Positions 27,580 through 47,540 are shown, counted from the stretch's first letter. The stretch is 64,000 nucleotides of DNA from Glaucostegus cemiculus (GCA_976551045.1 CDPCPM010000215.1:3844001-3908000); one strand, 5' to 3'. Made by a program: numbers and translations. Notes: generated from the sequence alone by a model not told the origin.

Positions 27580-27876
27580 GATAAGATATCTTTATTAGTC
27601 ACATGTACATCAAAACACACAGTGAAAGGCATCTTTTGCATAGAGTGTTCTGGGGGTAGCCCGCAGTGTTGCTATGCTTCTAGCACCAACATAGCATGCC
27701 CACAACTTCATAACCTGTATGTCTTTAGAGTGTGGGAGGAAACCGGAGCACCCAGAGGAAACCCATGCAGACGGGGGAGAATATACAAACTCCTTACAGA
27801 CAGAAGCTGGAATTGAACCCACGTCACTGGAGCTGTAATAGCATTATGCTAACCGTTACACTACCGTGCCTGCCCC
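27580..27876 (-). mobile_element. V-SINE with Rex1-like 3' tail
   Basis: V-domain gggaggaaaccggagcacccagaggaaaccc, tRNA head at 27800-27876, and tail (on -) catgtgactaataaagatatcttatc. Confidence 0.75.
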
Positions 27877-29149: not shown

Positions 29150-29680
29150 TTTTCTGGAATTTAGATATCCCTGGCTATGCCAGTGTTTACTGCCCATTTC
29201 CAAGTGCCCTTGGGCGGCACAGTAGCGTAATGGTTAGCGTGATGCTATTACAGCGCTAGTGATCAGGCTTCGATTCCCGTCACTGTCTGAAAGGAGTTTG
29301 TACATTGTCCCACGTCTCTGTGGGTTTCCTCTGGGTGGTCCGATTTCCTCCCACACTTCAAAGATGTACAGGTACTTAATTTGGGTTTAAAATGGGTGGC
29401 ACGGACTCATTGGGCCGGAAGGGCCTGTAAATAAAATTTATAAAAAATTAAAAGGTGGTGGTGAGCCACCTTCCTGAACAAGTACAATTTCTCTGGTGGA
29501 AGTGTTCCCACATCATCGATGCTGAGGGACTTCCAGGATTCAGAGCTGAATCAGGATGAAGGAGGACCAGTGATACATTTCCATGTCAGGTTGATGGGTG
29601 ACTTGGACATGAACTTGCAGGTGGTGGTGTGTCCATACACCAGTTGACCTTAACCTACTTGGCAGTCAGCATTAGTCATT
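29150..29680 (-). mobile_element. CR1/L2-clade LINE 3' end interrupted by a SINE
   Basis: gccagtgtttactgcccatttccaagtgcccttg continues after the SINE as aaggtggtggtgagccaccttcctgaac; homologous to 22030-22250. Confidence 0.7.
29213..29450 (+). mobile_element. Relatively young V-SINE nested in the LINE
   Basis: tRNA head ggcggcacagtagcgtaatggttagcg...cttcgattccc with CpGs retained, V-domain, gggccggaagggcctg and an A-rich tail. Confidence 0.85.
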
Positions 29681-29799: not shown

Positions 29800-30126
29800 A
29801 CAAGGAAGGCGGTCATTCAGCCCATCAGGTCTATACCAGCTCTCAGAACTATTTTAGCTCTTCACTGTAATCTATCCTCTCTCACATGCCCATTAACTCC
29901 CCATGAATCTTCGGCCACCCACCTACACTAGGGACTATTTACACTGGCCAATTAACCTACCTGCAATTCTTTGAGATGTGGGAGGAAACTAACACACCTG
30001 AAGGAAACCCACAAGATCACATGGAGAACTTGTAATCTCTCTATACAGACAGCACCGACGATCAGGATCAAACCTGGATCACTGGAGATTTGAGGCTGCA
30101 GCTCTACACGCTGAGTTGCCATGCCA
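29800..30126 (-). mobile_element. V-SINE/HE1-like SINE
   Basis: tctttgagatgtgggaggaaac...gaaacccac...tcaggatcaaacctggatcactggag. Confidence 0.75.
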
Positions 30127-36560: not shown

Positions 36561-37099
36561 CCCTTTTACAGCAGGACCTTGCAGTGATTTTAACTTGTGG
36601 ACATCAACAACATTCTGCTGGACAACCTTACTCCAGAAGTGGGCAAGAAGTGACTGACAGTGTGGAAAATTCAGAATTATTTGGTCACATATTCACACTC
36701 AGATTGGAGCAGGGGACAGTTTCTGGATAGAGGGTAAGCAGTTGGGGGGAGGGGTGTGTGTGGGTGGAGTGCCAAATGAGTGGACTTTGGGGAAAGGCCT
36801 AAATTTTCTTCTATTGCTGGAGACTCGCCATCTTCCTTATTGATTGGTCTTTCTAAAGCTTTCTGATATCAGGTAATATAAATAGGACATGCTGGCAACA
36901 AGCGTGGAAACAGAAAGCTAATATTTGTCAGTTTGTCAGAACTGGGCAAGAGAGAAAACAATATTCCCTGCTCAGCGTCCTAACACAAACAAGGGAACAA
37001 TGGGATCCACGTCTACTTAATTAAACACTCCAGTGATCTGGCCTGAAAATGTGGTTGAAAAAAAATCACATGCCAATGATGTCAACTAAATGAAAAAAA

Positions 37100-37541
37100 C
37101 AGTAAAAAAATGTTAGAAAGCAGTTACGGTAGGGGGTAAATGACAGAGAGACCTAGAATTCACCCCTCAGCCTTTAGTGTTTGCAACAGACGAATTGTTC
37201 GTCTGCAACTTGTTGATATGATTTTTTAGCTTGTAAGAATTGTACTTGTATTTGGAAATCCTTTGTAAGTTACAAGTTGTTAAGAGTTACTTATTTGAAT
37301 TAAATGTGTCTCACTGAAAACGAAATAAACTGTGTTTAAACTGCTTCGTAAGCTGGAAGCATCTTCTCCTTGATTGGGAGGTGGGACCCACCGCTCGAAA
37401 TAGTGGATCATTAACAGCTAGACCTTTCCATACAGTATAATCTCTCTATAGTGAGAGGACTCGTAGATCCTTATGCCAGATAGAACTTAAAGCCTTGACT
37501 TAAGTTTAGAGCTCTTGGATGGTACCCTCAATATCATCACA
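37100..37541 (+). promoter_or_regulatory. Putative 5' LTR remnant (R-U5)
   Basis: Ends in CA at 37540-37541, 2 nt before the PBS. It has AATAAA at 37324-37329 and an 8-bp hairpin cagacgaa/ttcgtctg at 37187-37205. The start position is a guess. Confidence 0.55.
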
Positions 37542-37543
37542 GT

Positions 37544-37561
37544 TGGCACCTAAAGTGGTCA
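37544..37561 (+). promoter_or_regulatory. Primer binding site, tRNA-Lys-like (degenerate)
   Basis: TGGCACCTAAAGTGGTCA versus the foamy tRNA-Lys1,2 PBS TGGCGCCCAACGTGGGGC: 12 of the first 15 nt match. It lies about 95 nt before the putative gag ATG. Confidence 0.75.
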
Positions 37562-37655: not shown

Positions 37656-38475
37656 ATGGCTAATATCCTAGTTCTAGCAGTTGTACAAGCAAATGCTGGT
37701 CAGTATTATGAATATAATATTAGGTCAGCAGAAATATGGGATGATACACCCAATGCTCCTCAAATTGATCATAATGAATATGTTATTTTTCAAGTCAGAG
37801 ACTGGAATGATGATGGAGTAGAACACTGAGTAGGATGTAGACTAGATAGACCGAATCCTGCTTTAATACCTACAGGACTCAGACCATCGCAATTTGTAAC
37901 AGATCTCAATAATGCAGCAATAATTCATGCCTGGAGACAACAAATTGGCCCATTTCAAGCTCAACCCTCGGATCACTCACAGTCACAGCGTCCCCATACC
38001 CCCGCTCCTCATCAGGGATGAGGTAATCAATAACCTAGACAAATGTCTTAGGGAATACCTGCCTCCGGCAGGTACATTCACCCACAAACTAGATGGCTGG
38101 ACATGAGTTATAGACCGAGACCTTTACCCCCAACCCAATTCTTTGAGCAACAAGGCATTAGACCAAGTTAAATTTGGTCTAACTAACACTCTCTGAATGT
38201 TATTTCTGTCTCATTTTGAGACATAAATACCATTCAGAGAGCCTGTTGATATTATGAAGGCAAATACGAAACTGACAAGGCACCGTGGGGTACAGCTCAT
38301 CATTCACAACCATCGGAACATGTAAAAGGACAGGACTCACCCCAAAAATCCATTCCCTTCCCTAGAACACAGGGAAAACAGAATGTAAAGAGGAAAAGCC
38401 AACGTTAATGTGATTGAAACAGAACAGGAGAATTTTAGCCATGACCCTGACCTAAATGCCCCATCTCAGGAATAG
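37656..38475 (+). pseudogene. gag: gag pseudogene, apparently internally deleted
   Basis: ATG at 37656 opens MANILVLAVVQANAGQYYEYNIRSAEIWDD...VIFQVRDWNDDGVEH*VGCRLDRP...RQQIGPF, followed by a P/Q/R-rich region. Two early stops are TGA, consistent with CGA decay. The C-terminus KANVNVIETEQ..SQE* is in another frame. The call rests mainly on position between PBS and protease. Confidence 0.6.
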
Positions 38476-40886
38476 GATGCAGGCATACTTTGTCTTGCCT
38501 TTCCGTATGCCAAAGCCTGTATTTTTGGGAAAATTTAGCCATGACATTTTGACACAGGTGCAGACATCTCAATGCTGAATGAAGATATTATTAGTGGTGA
38601 TGAACTAGATGAGCCAACAGAGACAATTAAAATCGTAGGCATACGTGGAAACGAGGTAGACTGCCCAAATTATAAAGTACTCATACAGATATACAGCATT
38701 TAATGAACAATAGAAGTCACCATAAAGTCTCCACACCAACTTGCCCCAGATCATACAAAACCAGCTCTTCTAATAGGATATCCTGGCATTTCCTATTGGA
38801 TTCGTACCATTATCAAACCAAAAACCGATGATATTGTACCAGATGAACGAGACATTCATATCCAGAAACAGTTAAACTATCAGAGCAAAATTAAAAAACG
38901 TCTTGTACAAATGTTGTGACCACCTGCAACAACACCCCAACCACTGTGGGTTGGTCGATATTGAACCAACTAAATCTGGATGCAATCCATTTCCACATCA
39001 GAAACTGTGGTATATGTTTTCCTCCGTTCAGGCAATCTTTACAAGAGACTGTAGACTCCCTCTGTAAGCAAGGAGTAGTGATAAAAGAACCTTCTCGAAT
39101 TAACTCACCCATGTTTGGTGTAGGAAAACCTGACAGACAGTGGCGATTGGCCATCGACTATATTGACCCAAATAAACACGCAGAGCTTAATTCAGTCCAA
39201 CAGCAGTCATTACAACAAAAGTTGCAAAGATTAACTCATAAAAAATATAAATCTTGCATAGACCTAGCTCATGGCTTTTGGTCACACTGAATTCTTGAAA
39301 ATGACAGCCTTTGCAGCTCCTGATGGTTCACAGTATCAGTGGACCAGACGAGGTTTTTGGATTAGTCCACAAATATTTTCAGTAGGAGTTATTCAGACAC
39401 TACAGGGCATACCAAATATTTGTGCATATGTAGATGATACATACTGCACAGCAGATAGATTGGAAGAGCATTTAACACAAATCAAGACTGTCATTAAGAA
39501 ATTGACGGGCAGAAGCTATGTAATTAACATTAAAATATCTCAACTCTGCCAATCAGAAGTAGATTTCCTCGGCATGTCAATTACAAATGAAGAATGTGGC
39601 TTAACCCCCGAATTTAGACAGAAGGTTGCTCAAGTGGGATATCCAAAGACCCTAAAAGCTTTACAATCAATTATGCTAGAACTTTCATTCCTGACTATGC
39701 CTGTATGACAGATGTGCTCCAAAGAATGAAAACCCTGTTGCCTTTACTCCAGATTATTATGAGACACTAGTAAAATTGATGAACACAGTTCAGTTAGCAA
39801 TAGACCTCCAGACAAGTGACCTCAAAATCTCTTGTTTTACATATCAGTGCTTCTCCTAAATCTGCTATAGCATGGGAGAAGAAATACACTATGCCTCATA
39901 ATTTCACCCCAACAGAACAAAAATTTACCTCTTTAGAGTGATGTCTCACTGTGGTGTTCCAGACACCTTTTGTAGTAAGACCATTTCAGGGAGACGAACC
40001 AATTATCATACAAACAGAATTTATGTCTCTAAAGAAATGATAACATTTGGCATTTGGCTTAATGTGGCACAACATCCTTTAAGACACTACTCTGAAATAT
40101 GGTACTGTGATGGGTCAGCAATGAGAGTCCATGGAAATAAATCTACTAGGTTACAAGCAGGAGCATGGATTGTTAAAGGATACTTTTTATCTGAACCAGA
40201 ATTTGAACCTTATGAATTACAAGCTTATCCTTTAGGGAACCATCCAGTGCAATTGCTGAGACTAAAGCTCTAGAGATATGCTTGAGACAAGTAAATACAA
40301 CTCAACCAGATCTGCACTGACTCTAACCATGTCAGGAATGCAGCAGAAAGAGATCTCCCCATCTGGTTGACTACCAGATGAAGAACACAGAGGAAAGCCA
40401 TTTTCACACTTGTCCACATGGAAAGATATCTGAATTATTTTTGACTTGTCCATTAGTACAGGTGTAGCACATCCTGGGACATACTGCAGGCTGTCTACAC
40501 AGCTATGGTAATAAATTAGTTGATGAACAAGCCAAACAAGCTGTTGGGATGGAACTTACTGCGGTAAGGCAGGCCAGGGTTATGGTAGTAACTAAGCAAC
40601 AAAAAAAAGTAATCAAAACAATGTTTTAAGAATACTCCCAGATACTACTCAACCCAATCCAAAAGGATTTGCACCACAGTACAAGTATGGAACTGACTGT
40701 GAAGGTAAGGTTTGGGGATGCTGCCCTAAAAAAGGTAAACAAATACCTTCTTCTCATAAGCGGGAAGAATTAATTCGAGAAGTCCACCAAGGAGTTGGAT
40801 ACAGTTATGGTGGCGGACAAGCCTCTCATGTGAAATTAGCTATATTATACTGGTGGCCTTGCATGTTGACTGATAGCAAGCAATTT

Positions 40887-41627
40887 CAGAATCAGGATCA
40901 GATTATTGTCACTTTCATGTACACACACCCACACACCCAGCATACATGAAGGTGAGATATCGTACTCCACAGGCCAATGTGCAAAGACATTACAGACAGT
41001 AAAAGACAACAGGACAAAAACATCAAAACATTGGTACATCAACCAGCCCCAGCCTCACCCCGCACCGACGACCACCTCCAGCCCCGCAGTCCTACAAGCT
41101 CCGGGCCCACAGTCCGAACCGATGACCACCTCCGCCCCCGCAGTCCGAGTACCTCCACCCCCGCAGTCCGAACCGATGACCACCTCCGGCCCCACAGTCC
41201 AACTACCTCCGGCCCCGCAGTCCGAACCAATGACCACCTCCGGCCCCGCAGTCCAGGCCCCGCAGTCCGACGGCCGACGACCTCCGGCCCCGCAGTCCGA
41301 CGACCTCCGGCCCCGCAGTCCGACGACCTCGACCTCCCGGCCCCGCAGCCCGACGACCTCCGGCCCCGCAGTCCGACGACCTCGACCTCCCGGCCCCGCA
41401 GCCTGACGACCTCCGGCCTGGGCAGCCCCCTCCCCGCCCGCAGCCTGAAGCCACCACAAGACTCCAGGGCCTTTGACACGCTGGGCTCCAACGAGCTGAC
41501 GGTGCCGTCAGCACAAACAACGAATCCATAGAACGAACATCAAGCACGCAGACATCAAGAACAAAGAATAGAAGAAAAAAAAGAGCACAAAACACTAAAA
41601 GACTAACAAAACACATAAAGCACTACT
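40887..41627 (-). mobile_element. Non-coding Rex1/Babar-tailed retroelement fragment with GC-rich minisatellite, inserted in integrase
   Basis: The minus-strand 3' tail gtgacaataatctgatcctgattctg matches the Rex1 tail at 53750-53785. It is flanked by the TSD GCAATTT (40880-40886 and 41628-41634). Confidence 0.85.
41050..41420. repeat. CpG-rich minisatellite (core cctccggccccgcagtccgacga)
   Basis: About 12 variant units of roughly 21-33 bp; explains the overlapping Pro/Arg/Gly-rich ORFs in the track. Confidence 0.95.
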
Positions 41628-42528
41628 GCAATTTGTTGCAAATTGTAAAGAATGTCTGGCCTATAATAAAGGATCAGTTACAAAACCAAATGCACTATTG
41701 CAGGTGTGGCAAATTGATTAAATAGGCACATTTCTGGCATCCCAAGACAACCCATCTTATCGGAGACCAAATAAATATATTCTTGCCATAGTTGATCTTT
41801 GTACGGGATCTATGTAGTTAGTTCCCACTGCTTCTTGTAGTGATACCGCTACCGTCACCGCACTTCAGAACTCAATAGTCCAGCATGCTGGCACCCCTGC
41901 CTGCTTATATGCAGGCCAAGGGTCTTCCTTCATTGGTAAAGGCTCAGGCCATGTGTGAATCGGCAGGAATACAAGAGGAGTACAGCACTCACACCACCTG
42001 CAATCGGGTGGGGCAGTGGAGAGAAAGAATCAGAAGATTAAGAGGGCCCTGGCAAAACTGGTCTACTCTAGAGGTAAAAGACGGACTACACTTGTCCCTG
42101 AAGTTCAGCTATCTGTGAAAAACATGCTACTGGAAAAAATAGGAGTACATAAGAATCCTACACCTTATTTCTTAATAAATAACGTCCACCTAAATACATC
42201 ACTAATCGCGAAATTAGGCCAACCATCACCTACACCTGATAAAACTCTATTCAAGGAATTCAGAGAGTTTATGGGAACCCAAGAGATACCAAAAGAACCT
42301 GATAAGAAAGTTTGGATGCCACATAAAGGCGATTGGGTTCAAGAAAAGAAATTTCATAAAAACAATTTTGACCCTAGTTTCCATCCTAAATGGAAACCTC
42401 CTTGTCTATTTACCCAGATTATCGATGATAGGACTGTGGTAATCGAGACCGAGAGGGGAAACAAGACCAAGGAGATCTGTCTCCATCAATAATATTAAGT
42501 GTGCCCCAGCAGCATTTGTACACCCAGG

Positions 42529-44470
42529 ATGAGTTGGAACCCTTGTATTAAACATATACACGATTCCACCAATAGAACCCCCACATCTGATCGTAGACAG
42601 ATGAGATGTATTGAACAGATAAGACACATGCTTCAATCCAAAAAGCATAAAAATTCCTTTTCACTTGAAGAAGATCTCATGGATATGTTACCCAGAAATA
42701 GTACACCTAAAAAGCATTGTTGTTTTTCAAGCAAGAAACACCCGAACTCCAGAAAGAAATGTTGCTCTTGCTATACATTTCTTTTAATATTTATGCTTAT
42801 TACAATATTATTCAGTGCTACTTTACTTACCATTTGTTTTTTAACAGGTGAAGTAGCATTTACCACAGAGTTTGCCTCATCTGGCTCAGATACCCTTAAA
42901 CTTAATGATTCATAGAATATTAGATCTAGGAGATCTGTGAGCAATGATGATTCCAACTTAAATGCCACTAGATAGTTCTTATCCTTTGGTCATGTGTGGA
43001 CCAATACACTGGAACCCTTTGGCAAAGTGATTGTCAATATGATCACAAGATGGCTTTCTCCTACACATCTTCTGATTTTCAGAACCCTTTCCACCATCTC
43101 CAAGACAAACGTCAGGAGAACAATTGAAAACACTCCACCTGCTCCAATACTTAAGTGTCAAGAAACACAACACTGTCCAGAACAAAAATCCTGACCAATG
43201 TTTCGTGCACAACCCTGTACGTTCAGCCTCTCCATCAATGGTGCACAGTGATGACAATGTATATTCTTCATAAAATGCACTGTAGTTACTCATCATAGCT
43301 TCTTTGATTGCACCTCCCAAACATCAAACATCTACCACCTAGAGGGCCAAGGGAAGCATTGGAACGCCTCTACTATCAAACACCTCCCAGGTTTCCAATG
43401 CATCAACTTTCCAGTCATTGAGTGGAAATCCTGGAACTCCCTCTGTGGGAATAAGTTCAGTGGCTCAAAAAGGCAGGTTGCTGGCACCATAATCATTCAT
43501 TTAGAAATAAACTATATCTCCTGGCCTTGCAATGGCCAGCAATGGCCACATCTCACAAAAGGAAATAATTCTTGGTTTATGCAAGTTGTTGCCAATTTGA
43601 TGAGGTAGCAGGACATTGCTAGGACCTGTGCAACTATATCACAAATACACTCAAGGAACAGCTCATAATTCCATAAAAGAAACAAAGCAACAACTACATT
43701 TATATGCCCCTTATTACAGCCTTTGGTTATTCCAAGGTATGTTATAACCAACAAAATAGTTCTGGCATGCACTTATGGTAGAACTTTTTACATATATTGT
43801 AAGATTGAACAGAAGTTATTTTCCAGAAACTGGTTGAAGGTTTAATGTCCCCAGTTGAATTCACATGGGAGAGGATCTAGGTTTCAATGAATATCTCATC
43901 TCTAATACTGCAGCATTCCCTTGGTACTGCAATGAAATTTGTGCCTGGACTTTATGCTCAAATCCCTGGAGTGGGGTTTGAATCCTTGGTCTTTTGGCAC
44001 AGAGATGAGAGTATGATTCAGTTGACAGACTGCATGAGTCCCACTGAAAGGTCTGATTACTAGCTACCCAGTGCAGAGGTGATTACAATGACCAATAAAG
44101 GATGAGTAATCAGTCATCACCTTTGATTTTAAATGAGGTCAAACGAAAGGAACTGGAAGAGCTGGTCAGCAGATCCCCATCAAAATCCAATGGTCTAGCC
44201 ACACACAGCCAGAACGTTTTGAATGCAGCCCAACAATGTCACAAGTAGTTATTCAGGGGATTACGATGAGAGCAAAGTCACAGTTATTAACATTTGAAGG
44301 AGAATATATTGGAAAAGATATACATTTAGTCTAGACAACCTTGTCAGTGAAATAATGACATCATAAAACATTCTGCTCCTACCGGCGGGTGGATAGGTCT
44401 GTCTTTTTCTTGTTGAACAATTTATCTCTGTTAAATTGATGAAGCCATGATAGTACTTGATCTGAATCTT
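42529..44470 (+). pseudogene. env: env pseudogene with foamy-type leader peptide, internally deleted
   Basis: ATG at 42529 opens a long hydrophilic N-terminus, then a hydrophobic helix CCSCYTFLLIFMLITILFSATLLTICFL and furin site RSRR/SV (42922-42933). Matches to PFV: EPFGKVIVNMITRWLSPTHLLI to EPHPEPIVVKERVLGLSQILMI; LVIPRYVITN (43723-43752) to LVIPKHIYLN; IQGITMRAKSQLLTFEGEYI to LVGIIAKIK...SSGESI; LMKPMIV to YLKPILI. Confidence 0.8.
43860..44027 (-). mobile_element. SacSINE1/DeuSINE-like fragment inside env
   Basis: tgcagcattcccttggtactgcaatg...gcctggactttatgctcaaatccctggagtggggtttgaatcc...cagagatgagagt, homologous to 21840-21965 and 36080-36190. Confidence 0.7.
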
Positions 44471-45859
44471 TAAAAGAGGAGTACAATGGGGAGAAGAGGA
44501 AAAATTCTACCCTGATCGGATGACCATTATATATTAAATTTTACAATGTAGCTTTGTTGTTTATTTTTTCCCCATCAGCCCATTCACCACCAAAACTCCT
44601 GTCTACCCCAGCCTGTAGCATTGCTACCATAGATAAAGTCAGCAACCGGCAACAATTAGATGAGATACAAGTCACCCATCCTCCAATAATCTAGTTGTCA
44701 CAAAATTGTATTCAGAGAAATGATTCATATTCTTTCATATTGATGACTGTATTTTGATTAAAAGGAGGCTCAGATCAGCAGTAGCAGCAAATAAAGCAGT
44801 TAGCTCACAGCGAGCATACCCATCATTCTCCTTTTATGACCAGCCTGCTGTGTAGCGCACCACAAGCTCATGCTTACTTTGCAAGAGGCTTCTGAGTCCA
44901 TACATTACTGCTGAACTGGCCTGATGAGAGAGAACAAATATGAACCTGAGAGTTATTTTCTGGTAGCTTGTCTCAACAAGTTACCTGCCTGTGTAATCCC
45001 ATTACGATTCAATATTTGGGAGCAGTGAAGTGAAAATTATAGAAGCAAGCTTGCCCTCTTATTGTGAACATTTTGTGGGAAAATGAATGATTCAAGATAC
45101 TCCTTTGTGCCAGAACATTTTAGCATGAATGGAACCATTCTATACAGTAGCTTAAATCATAAATTTTACTCCATTATAAAGGCTGGAATATAAATTTAAT
45201 ATCAGAGTTTCCCAGGAGGAGCAATGAATCATGCAAGACATTTAAGGCCTCACAGAAATCCTATAGAAACATGCTAAAGACATTAACAAATATTGAACAT
45301 CAGGAAAAAAATAGTGGTCAAAATTTGTTATCACAATAACAGTACAGCTAATGGCATTCATCATTTATGCAGCAATGCTGCAGCAACTTCAGGTGAAGAC
45401 AGGTAGTGTTTAAAGATGGAAATCCAAAGGTCGCTGTTGAAATCATGTCATTCTGCTTATGGCCTTGAGAAAGTAATTGTCTAAAAGCATCAGTTATTGT
45501 CTGCCTCATCAATAATATACATTCAGCAGATGAAGTTCCCTGACTTCCATAGCTGCTAGCAAGCAAACTTATCAAAGAAAATTAAGTCATAGCATGTTTA
45601 AGTACCTTCTTAAAGATATAAAAACTGATCATCTGGGATACTGAAAATTAAGCAATACAATTTGGTAGAGATGTAAAATAAACTTTTTTTTAAAATATAA
45701 AAGAAAACTTTTCCTTTCTGTCTTGTTCCCTTTTTCCCTTTGTTCAAGTCCTTTCCCTCTTTGTTTTTCTATCTGTATTACTTTGACACTGAATTCTTCC
45801 ATTTACATTTCATTCTTAACGGTCTATAGGCAGGGAGGGATTCAGGACAATCTCTGTCA

Positions 45860-47140
45860 CAAGAGAAAATGTATTCAAAAAATTAATGGAGTGAAAGGCC
45901 AACAAAGCCCCTGGATCTGATGGCTTGCATTCTATGGTCTTGAAGGAAGAGACTGAAGGGATAGTGGATGTGTTGATTATAACCTATCAAGATTCTCTAG
46001 ATTCTGGAAAGGTCCCAAGGAAATGGATAACTGCAAATGTAAAGTCACTATTCAAGAAAGCAGGAAACCATAGACCAGTTAGTCTGAAATGTGTCATTAG
46101 GAAAACACTAGAACCTAACTTTAAGATTAAGAAAAATCAGAAGGTAATCAAGCAGATTTCACATATTCCATGAGAGTGAAAGAGTGTTAATAAATTTGCT
46201 TGAGTTCTTTGCAAATGTAACAAACAGGGTGAATAAAGGGGAATTAATAACAAGCTGCTGGAGGACCCGAGTGCATCAGGCAACATTCGTGGAGTGAAGT
46301 GGACAGTTGATATTTCGGGTTGAGACACTTCATATGGATGGGAGGGTTGATCTGAAAGGTATTTTATATGTCACCTTGTCAAAGGTTACTGAACAAGAAT
46401 GAACAGGGCTGCATGTAATATACTGACACAAACAGGGTAACTAACAGAAATAGAGAGTTGAGTTAAACGGGTCATTTTCAGAATGGCAATAAGTTGAGGG
46501 ATGTCACAGGAATCAACACTGGGATCTCACAAGATATATTGATTACCAAGTGTAATGCTGTCAGGTTTGGTGATGATACAAAAATAGATGGGTTAGCATG
46601 TTATGAGAAGGATATAAAGTGTCTGTAAAAGGATAAAGATAGGTTAAGTGAGTGTGAAAGAAGTTAGGAGTATAATGTGCGATAATGTGGTGTAGTCCAC
46701 TTTGGAGGGCAGAATAAACATGCAAATTCTTAATTAAATGGAGTGAGACCTGTGATCCTAGTACATGAAACACAAATGGTTAACATGTGGGTACAGCAAG
46801 TAATTAGGAAAGCCAATGGAATATTGGCTTCTATTGCAAGATTTATGAAGTATAAAAGTAGGAAAGTATTGACACATTTTCACAGGGAAGTGGCCATACA
46901 GTGTACATTTTTGGTCCCCATATCTCAGAATGATATTTATTCTTGCATTGGAGGAAGTGGAGAGAAGATTCACTAATTGATACCAGGAATGAAGGAATAG
47001 ATGGGTGAAGAAAAGTTGGATATATAATCACTGAGCTCTGGAAGAATGAGAGTTAATTGAATAAAAACATTTAAGATTCTGAAGGGTATTGACAAAGTAG
47101 GGATATCTAGAACTAGAAAGCACAGTTTCAGCATTAGAGG
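45860..47140 (+). mobile_element. Decayed CR1 ORF2 with an inserted Penelope terminal fragment at about 46250-46335
   Basis: KA.K.PGSDGLH.MVLKE, SLDSGKVPRKWITANV..LFKK, RFGDDTK and VQQVIRKANGILASIAR motifs. Confidence 0.85.
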
Positions 47141-47149
47141 AGATAAAGA

Positions 47150-47540
47150 ATCGGGGGCCAAGAACCGATCTTTGGAGCACTCCGTTAGTTATATCCTTCC
47201 AGTCTGAAAAAGACCTGTTCATTTTGACCCTGTCTTCTAGGTAATAACCAATCTTTAATCCATACCCCTTCATACCATGAGCTCTTATCTTTGCACCAGT
47301 CTTTTGTGTAGCACTTTGTCAAATGCCTACTGAAAATTCAAATACACCATACCTACACTTCCCCTCTATTGTCTCATTACATCTTCAAGGAATGCTAGCA
47401 AGTTTATCAAACATGATTTACCATTCAGAAAACCACATTGACTTGGTTTGATTACATTAAGCTTCCTTAATTTTCGACTCCAACATCTCATCAACAACAG
47501 ATGTTAAGCTAATAGGCCTACAGTTACCTGCTTAATTTAC
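47150..47540 (-). mobile_element. CR1 RT fragment
   Basis: The minus strand encodes FSDWKDITNGVLQRSVLGP and the upstream AFDKV region. Confidence 0.8.

Follow-up and report, generated by a model that had tools for sequence, protein, structure and literature searches.

A 3'-truncated endogenous foamy provirus of Glaucostegus cemiculus and the probable spread of its env-deleted subfamily

The segment studied here (positions 42529-44470) is part of a 64,000-nucleotide stretch of Glaucostegus cemiculus DNA (GCA_976551045.1, CDPCPM010000215.1:3844001-3908000), which is called the window throughout and is numbered from its first letter. The segment opens with an env remnant, the last recognizable part of a decayed provirus; about three quarters of it consists of a LINE fragment, single-copy DNA and a short repeat. 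The features of the locus are listed below. Sister copies are other insertions of the same family in the 2.85 Gb genome, and C and L numbers are used where they must be told apart.

36956..37541, plus strand: recognizable part of the 5' LTR, ending in ATCACA; 65-76% identical to 3' LTRs in 8 of 10 sister regions tested
37544..37561, plus strand: degenerate primer-binding site (PBS), tRNA-Lys-like as judged by eye, 2 bases after the LTR end
37656..38400 (approximate), plus strand: gag remnant with a ~870-nt internal deletion at 37955, colinear with copy C137
38450..42492, plus strand: pol remnant with protease, reverse transcriptase (RT, with YVDD), RNase H and integrase; many stops and frameshifts
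40887..41630, no strand assigned: insertion private to the window copy, in the integrase region; the sisters join 40886 directly to 41631
42529..42912, plus strand: env leader peptide (LP): cytoplasmic part lacking WxxW, Cys-Cys and membrane helix; 128 codons, then a stop
42922..42933, plus strand: predicted LP/SU furin site RSRR, kept in 10 of 11 sisters
42934..43036, plus strand: first ~34 SU codons and end of the provirus in the window copy; the sister alignment ends at 43001-43034
43061..43548, plus strand: fragment from the 3' part of a LINE, unrelated to env; high-copy genome matches, with RVT_1 upstream in one locus
43549..43889, no strand assigned: single-copy DNA holding LVIPRYVITN (43723-43752); self-match only
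43890..44054, no strand assigned: fragment of a short dispersed repeat, SINE-like, with 9 other genome matches

The LTRs of sister copies are ~800 nt long and start and end with a 7-nt inverted repeat; their first ~180 nt have no match in the window LTR. A Lys PBS sequence is printed in PMC6955096, and the PBS-like site of the window resembles it by eye. In the pol remnant, the positions of protease and RNase H were assigned by eye; Pfam recognized the RT (RVT_1, E 6.4e-8), and rve, Integrase_H2C2 and SH3_11 stayed below the cut-off. Relative to the sisters ~150 nt are deleted before RNase H (40045-40055). The private insertion (744 nt) splits the zinc-binding region of integrase, has long open frames on both strands and includes a GC-rich tandem repeat (41050-41418) with units of ~23, 30 and 54 nt. 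Upstream of the provirus, a short high-copy repeat occurs in both orientations (27703-27870, 29216-29383 and 29948-30013); the same repeat is also inserted in several sister proviruses.

The env frame starts with the ATG at 42529, has a basic N-terminal part and runs for 128 codons before the first stop. The sequence-only reading of this DNA had described about 135 codons preceding RSRR/SV, with Cys-Cys followed by a long hydrophobic helix, and these elements are all in place: Cys-Cys is at codons 78-79, the hydropathy of 19-residue segments exceeds 1.6 for all starting points between aa 76 and 94 (peak 2.63 at aa 84, helix in the aa 76-112 region), and RSRR corresponds to codons 132-135 (42922-42933). 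Codon 129 (42913), between the helix and the furin site, is a stop, and a second stop is found at codon 149. Translation of the window in six frames gave 41 R-x-[KR]-R sites, of which one, the env site, has a strong helix in a stop-free frame 15-70 residues upstream, by site and helix criteria that were chosen after the site was already known. An R-x-[KR]-R motif is retained at the LP/SU position in 10 of 11 sister copies, and in the LP region the DNA identity between the window and its sisters is 65-85%. The N-terminal furin-like site of foamy Env comprises residues 122-126, the same position as RSRR in the window (PMC11468914). As judged from its sequence, the window remnant appears to contain the membrane-anchored leader with a furin-cut LP/SU junction that is a feature of the Spumaretrovirinae. 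The interpretation as a foamy-type leader was borne out in this form, the site being conserved among the sisters and sister env matching the foamy envelope family PF03408.

The window env itself (169 codons) had no match in Pfam, PF03408 included; the foamy Env profile, proposed earlier as a check, recognized SU and TM of sister copies but not the window sequence. Comparison of the window env with the PDB, by sequence and by profile, gave nothing relevant. An LP profile, 3 of whose 9 rows are partly out of frame, had no match among 1.84 billion representatives, and in the ESM Atlas the best match of window env/LP was 0.86, with low recognition, to generic membrane-anchor proteins.

The earlier reading had extended the same frame to ~43840 and assigned LVIPRYVITN to the TM subunit. 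The frame does have just seven stops in its 438 codons before codon 439 (~43843) and the motif is present at 43723-43752, but past ~43036 the frame is not env and a LINE fragment is located inside it. When the 440-codon frame was compared with the genome, residues 1-206 matched a small family and residues 175-310 another, high-copy family. In none of the sister loci does DNA similarity to the window env extend past 43034, and the sisters go on matching one another for ~350-1250 nt beyond the point where similarity to the window ends. The segment 43061-43548 was matched by 40 of 40 scored loci, self included (62 candidates), the similarity extending over all three frames in 7-8 of 8 loci, and RVT_1 was detected upstream of it in one of four loci scanned (L017). 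LINE-type RT fragments on the plus strand are also seen farther downstream of the env remnant, at 45895-47320 (ORF list, by eye). Positions 43560-43910 matched nothing but themselves in the genome search. The dispersed repeat at 43890-44054, which we take to be of the SINE-like class, matched a repeat profile with E ~1e-30, a value to be read with the knowledge that the profile loci had been picked by that match; the profile, when extended upstream, did not reach LVIPRYVITN.

These data bear on the possibility that 42529-43840 is a single, internally deleted env ending in a TM piece. The scarcity of stops speaks for it, as does the fact that 43549-43889 has no other assignment. Against it, the middle of the interval is a LINE fragment, and the motif region matches neither the three long env copies nor PF03408 (E<=1) nor any solved structure (E<=10), gp130 included; for the whole of 43037-45000 the best match to the three longest env copies was E 0.12 with blastn and 0.31 with tblastn. 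No second LTR, accessory region or further env was found in the rest of the window or in the next 10 kb. The continuous env is thereby largely refuted and we consider it very improbable. Because the downstream DNA matches neither long env copies nor PF03408 nor known structures, the env remnant extends from 42529 to ~43036, with LVIPRYVITN most likely a chance resemblance, and the sequence-only reading had thus over-extended env by ~1.4 kb. A later deletion or rearrangement, marked by the LINE fragment, would account for the missing remainder of env and for the absence of the accessory region and of the 3' LTR.

The family to which the provirus belongs can be recognized through its sister copies. 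C137, whose integrase and LP show 84% identity to those of the window, goes on into SU, and its SU matches PF03408 (positions 226-326, E 5.7e-4). C74, which matches the window LP piecewise (73-75%), has a TM region that matches PF03408 positions 753-969 with E 1e-8 and 33.9 bits, above the 27-bit cut-off. Weak matches to the same family were obtained with C19 and C33 (SU, E ~0.01) and C169 (TM, E 0.014), five sister copies in all; C60 env had none. When SU and TM pieces of the sisters were compared with the PDB, the matches were weak (E 0.0026-0.33) and were to simian foamy gp130 chains only (8aez, 8rm0, 8rm1), the SU of C137 aligning with all three and the TM of C74 with the gp130 TM chain. 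The gag of C137, in a segment that the window copy lacks, matched Gag_FV_central (PF20672, E 2.3e-6) with 27.7 bits, which is under the 30-bit cut-off. In a PDB ranking, the RT piece of the window was most similar to PR-RT-RNase H / Pr125Pol chains (E 3e-26), which we take, from their entry names, to be foamy RTs, followed by Ty3 (1e-7) and MLV (2.5e-3); as a similarity ranking, this places foamy-type chains ~19 orders of magnitude ahead of Ty3. A sister SU piece and the RT had no match when used in word-index protein searches, which is weak evidence. No zinc knuckle was matched in gag, whose sequence is decayed; foamy Gag has neither a Cys-His box nor an MHR (PMC3705263).

Env is ~2.95 kb (~980 codons) in the long copies. 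The SU/TM furin site was not located in these frameshifted sequences, comparison of the adjoining stretch with the PDB yielded no relevant match, and the corresponding region is absent from the window copy. In C60, ~2.5 kb separate the end of env from the LTR. In 17 copies, one frame following env has 30 stops in 1972 codons and a third-position excess (0.32 as compared with 0.26 and 0.21), whereas the remaining frames have 121 and 129 stops; the depletion of stops and the third-position excess therefore indicate an accessory ORF, for which Pfam gave no match. This ORF (L075:3600-4130 and 16 other copies) overlaps the end of env, is Cys-rich by eye and is under purifying selection; ~2 kb more, with no annotation, lie between it and the 3' LTR. 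In most copies read, the 3' LTR has a purine tract ahead of it. The pol of C60 contains an LTR-like piece of the family (L041:5067-5431), possibly a nested insertion. Target-site duplications of 4 nt, read by eye in the five copies with both ends, were exact in three and agreed in three of four bases in two, all being different. This length is a foamy trait that gammaretroviruses share. Family traits of this kind agree with those given for foamy viruses in PMC11468914, PMC3705266 and PMC5210030.

Taken together, the PF03408 and Gag_FV_central matches of the sisters, the RT ranking and the 4-nt duplications identify the window element as a decayed endogenous foamy virus. Sequence comparison places it as a descendant of an enveloped spumavirus, the link running through colinear sister copies. 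The RT placement is a similarity ranking, and foamy Env is structurally related to paramyxo/pneumovirus F (PMC11468914); both points would leave room for a class III ERV of another kind, such as a lokiretrovirus, whose envelope is F-like rather than foamy. Lokiretrovirus Env matches PF00523 (PMC7947760). PF00523 matched none of the env frames scanned, whereas sister env matches PF03408, and the long membrane-anchored leader, the Gag_FV_central match and the accessory ORF after env speak against a lokiretrovirus. We consider that such an origin can hardly be correct.

Endogenous foamy viruses also occur in coelacanth, salamanders, reptiles and birds. The family shares with the Spumaretrovirinae the order LTR-PBS-gag-pol-env-accessory-LTR, an Env of ~980 codons with the LP/SU site near residue 130, SU/TM profile matches, a match to the Gag central domain just under the cut-off, the 4-nt target-site duplication, the purine tract and, in some copies, WxxW. 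It differs in that all copies examined are decayed, the LP falls outside what PF03408 recognizes, the accessory ORF has no Pfam match, and the LTR is ~800 nt in contrast to the 950-1700 nt quoted as typical for foamy viruses (PMC6955096). Endogenous foamy viruses of cartilaginous fish have been published (Wang, Chen, Cui 2023, J Virol, PMC9972966), so the window element belongs to a known type; given a shark or ray as host, it is probably of the same kind and possibly of the same lineage. The FLERVs of teleosts and ghost shark resemble the family in their class III RT, in the 4-nt target-site duplication and GGGTG-like PPT/LTR junction reported for them and, as far as the degenerate site shows, in the Lys PBS (PMC5210030). 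For teleost FLERVs PMC5210030 states that no WXXW was found, whereas this family keeps WxxW in some copies; for ghost shark PMC5512871 reports pol alone, whereas PF03408-type SU and TM are present here.

Env-region DNA was collected from 25 insertions, nine apparent host duplicates being counted once. These nine loci (L087-L095; C293, C530, C364, C201) had been considered as an env-less burst, a candidate that was rejected in favor of host duplication of one insertion, since five have flanks in common with L087 and in three the match is confined to the element core. L087-L089 show 97-99% identity over 10 kb, flanks included, and shared flank DNA is seen in three further loci, which suggests host segmental duplication; the duplicated copy is internally deleted, without RT and with nearly all of env gone, and the loci are on a few small contigs. 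Copy number is in the tens, with at least 42 matches to the integrase region and at least 16 to the RT. In 45 of 46 comparisons the flanks were unrelated, and unrelated flanks together with differing target sites show that the copies are separate integrations. K2P distances of all LTR pairs were 0.06-0.25, the three longest comparisons giving 0.11-0.17. If a rate of 1e-9 per site per year is assumed, the latter values correspond to roughly 55-85 My; with 2.2e-10, a rate borrowed from PMC4422223, they correspond to roughly 240-375 My.

Most of env is kept in three of the 25 insertions (C60, C74 and C169), where the longest stop-free frames are of 115-146 codons; the intact env ORF that was to be looked for is thus not found among the three long copies. 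Seven insertions of the window subfamily (class A), at independent sites wherever their flanks were comparable, have one common junction, by which ~1.9 kb of env were removed, and six (class C) have another, with a loss of ~2.9 kb. The three class B insertions carry differing deletions of ~1.5-1.7 kb, which appear by eye to sit at short repeats. The remaining six, among them the window copy, are truncated, incomplete or have other deletions.

A tree of 21 copies places the window copy within a star-like clade of seven members (96/96), together with class A members, and it is 85-88% identical to four clade members as compared with 72-78% to three other copies. The stop at codon 129 was found in five of 11 sisters, all in this clade (sense codon in four, gap in two), that is, in the window and all five alignable clade members and in none of the four alignable outsiders. 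The stop at codon 149 does not track the tree, being present in C60 and absent in C248, so that shared stops can recur. WxxW, the Gag-binding motif in the cytoplasmic domain of the foamy LP (PMC3705266), was found in four of 15 copies, none of the seven in the window clade and four of the eight others. The window copy has lost its own junction region; that it once carried the class A deletion is what we infer from the tree and from the shared stop.

The borders of the class A deletion were read in copies that keep the site. At the 5' border G|GTAA is present in C74, C14 and C14b, it is offset by a few bases in C169, and the GT is missing in C60, C132 and C196, hence the donor is seen in three of seven copies and, offset, in a fourth. 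The 3' border is a T-rich tract ending in TAG in all three long copies, and in C74 it falls within the codons of the anchor helix; this pattern was derived from an earlier reading of the same junction and therefore displays the acceptor rather than tests it. The two sides of the junction have only AG in common. With background frequencies per base of 0.0004-0.0014 for such donors and 0.005-0.008 for such acceptors, the joint chance of the class A borders is ~1e-4 after the placements and classes considered (hand arithmetic). A common deletion at independent sites, with donor- and acceptor-like borders, points to a reverse-transcribed spliced genome; to judge from the border sequences, what class A lost is most likely an intron, spliced out of the genomic RNA before reverse transcription.

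An ordinary template switch of the RT, or a DNA deletion whose splice-like borders arose by chance, would be in keeping with the apparent short repeats at class B deletions, with a 7-nt word shared across the class C junction and with the absence of the donor GT in three of the seven copies. Such an event is at odds with the AG as the only shared sequence, with the match of both borders to the splice consensus and with the low joint chance, and we judge it unlikely for class A. Class C is ambiguous between splicing and template switch: its acceptor is strong (8 of 9 copies), but its donor is weak (present in none of six clade A copies and in three of six that belong to neither clade A nor class C), and the 7-nt word is shared. 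The class C junction (L097:rc ~4554; also L077, L078, L019, L096, L098) joins the cytoplasmic part of LP to the acceptor in the accessory region, and WxxW is kept in two of three class C copies checked.

Splicing as the cause of the class A deletion has precedents. MMTV env with the rem intron deleted and spliced HERV-H proviruses are ascribed to reverse-transcribed spliced RNA, and are called rare (PMC11998498). They resemble class A in being otherwise full-length, with a shared env deletion that matches an intron. In MMTV/HERV-H, however, the intron is known from a living virus and the deleted env is open, whereas in class A the intron is deduced from sequence and the copies are very old. 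Moreover, the class A join re-enters the last codons of env and makes no known accessory protein, unlike in those systems. The join keeps the env frame and terminates a few codons later, so the product would be an unanchored LP with partial SU.

A wider reading, which we offer tentatively and hold to be possible rather than probable, is that these fossils preserve the splice map of an ancient aquatic foamy virus, in which a donor in SU would be joined to an acceptor in the anchor codons ahead of the accessory ORF, and that this splice founded the env-dead burst. Class C may then record a splice from LP to the accessory region, and the spliced message might encode a secreted LP with partial SU, a possible natural foamy Env decoy. 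The class A acceptor would then be the counterpart of the primate foamy acceptor that serves tas/bet and Env-Bet and lies in the corresponding part of env. A delta-Tas genome is known in primate foamy virus.

Going by family membership, the ancestral Env, of ~980 codons, would have functioned like that of mammalian foamy viruses: the leader would be anchored in the membrane, its cytoplasmic WxxW would bind Gag for budding, and furin cleavage would yield LP, SU and TM prior to membrane fusion. The founder of the window subfamily would already have been env-dead, with the stop at codon 129, no WxxW and the 1.9-kb deletion, and many germline re-integrations of its genome would have followed, through retrotransposition inside the cell or with the help of Env provided in trans. 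Since the subfamily shares a stop ahead of the furin site and the 1.9-kb deletion, its Env was most likely not functional during this spread; the route of spread, like splicing, is what we infer. The choice posed at the outset between an enveloped spumavirus and an env-less retrotransposon was right as to the ancestor, but is a false one for the window copy, its subfamily being most likely env-dead when it spread. Foamy budding is strictly Env-dependent (PMC3705266). Primate foamy virus can retrotranspose intracellularly (PMC3705263); according to PMC3185757, the 5% retrotransposition of Env-deficient PFV is from an artificial condition, and none was detected with feline foamy virus.

Selection within the clade was assessed from third positions, the values of each region being compared with random pairings. 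The third-position share was 0.336 for pol and 0.303 for env, neither being significant; an excess in the C-terminal part of integrase (p 0.043) was gone once the RT was added. With the test on pol negative overall, retrotransposition in cis and complementation in trans are not separable. Env-less ERV 'superspreaders' (Magiorkinis 2012) resemble the family in that most copies are without functional env and several have one common lesion; unlike superspreaders, the family numbers only tens of copies (lower bounds), and its test for cis selection on pol was negative overall.

The 128-codon leader might alternatively have been co-opted by the host. Its frame is open in the window and stops just ahead of the natural cleavage site, the stop is common to six clade members, and geckos are reported to carry co-opted foamy sequences (PMC6669660). 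Set against this are the absence of WxxW from all seven clade members, a third-position share of the LP within the clade that shows no excess (0.118 as compared with 0.14), frameshifts or stops in the LP frame of most sisters and the lack of an LP protein homolog among the 1.84 billion representatives; moreover, open frames of 117-177 codons are also present in the dead pol. Co-option thus has a very slim chance of being true: leader co-option is unlikely, and no sign of env co-option was found. Overall, we are fairly confident that the locus is best explained as a 3'-truncated foamy provirus, the founder of whose env-dead subfamily was probably spliced and then re-integrated in the germline.

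By itself, the env piece from which this study started is unremarkable, a remnant of a dead provirus. Foamy fossils have been called extremely rare (PMC8922424), and the value of this one lies in the family around it. A literature search, whose coverage lacked the main paper on cartilaginous-fish foamy viruses, found no report of a shared, splice-bounded env loss in foamy ERVs; the supplements of foamy-ERV papers could already list the family. Foamy budding needs Env, yet most copies are without most of env, many of them with one and the same lesion. If the main deletion is an intron, the family would represent a natural germline multiplication of a foamy virus without its envelope, and splice sites would be readable for a virus that died out tens to hundreds of My ago. 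If, in addition, the class A acceptor is truly the counterpart of the primate one, the splice arrangement would be as old as the foamy lineage of fish and tetrapods.
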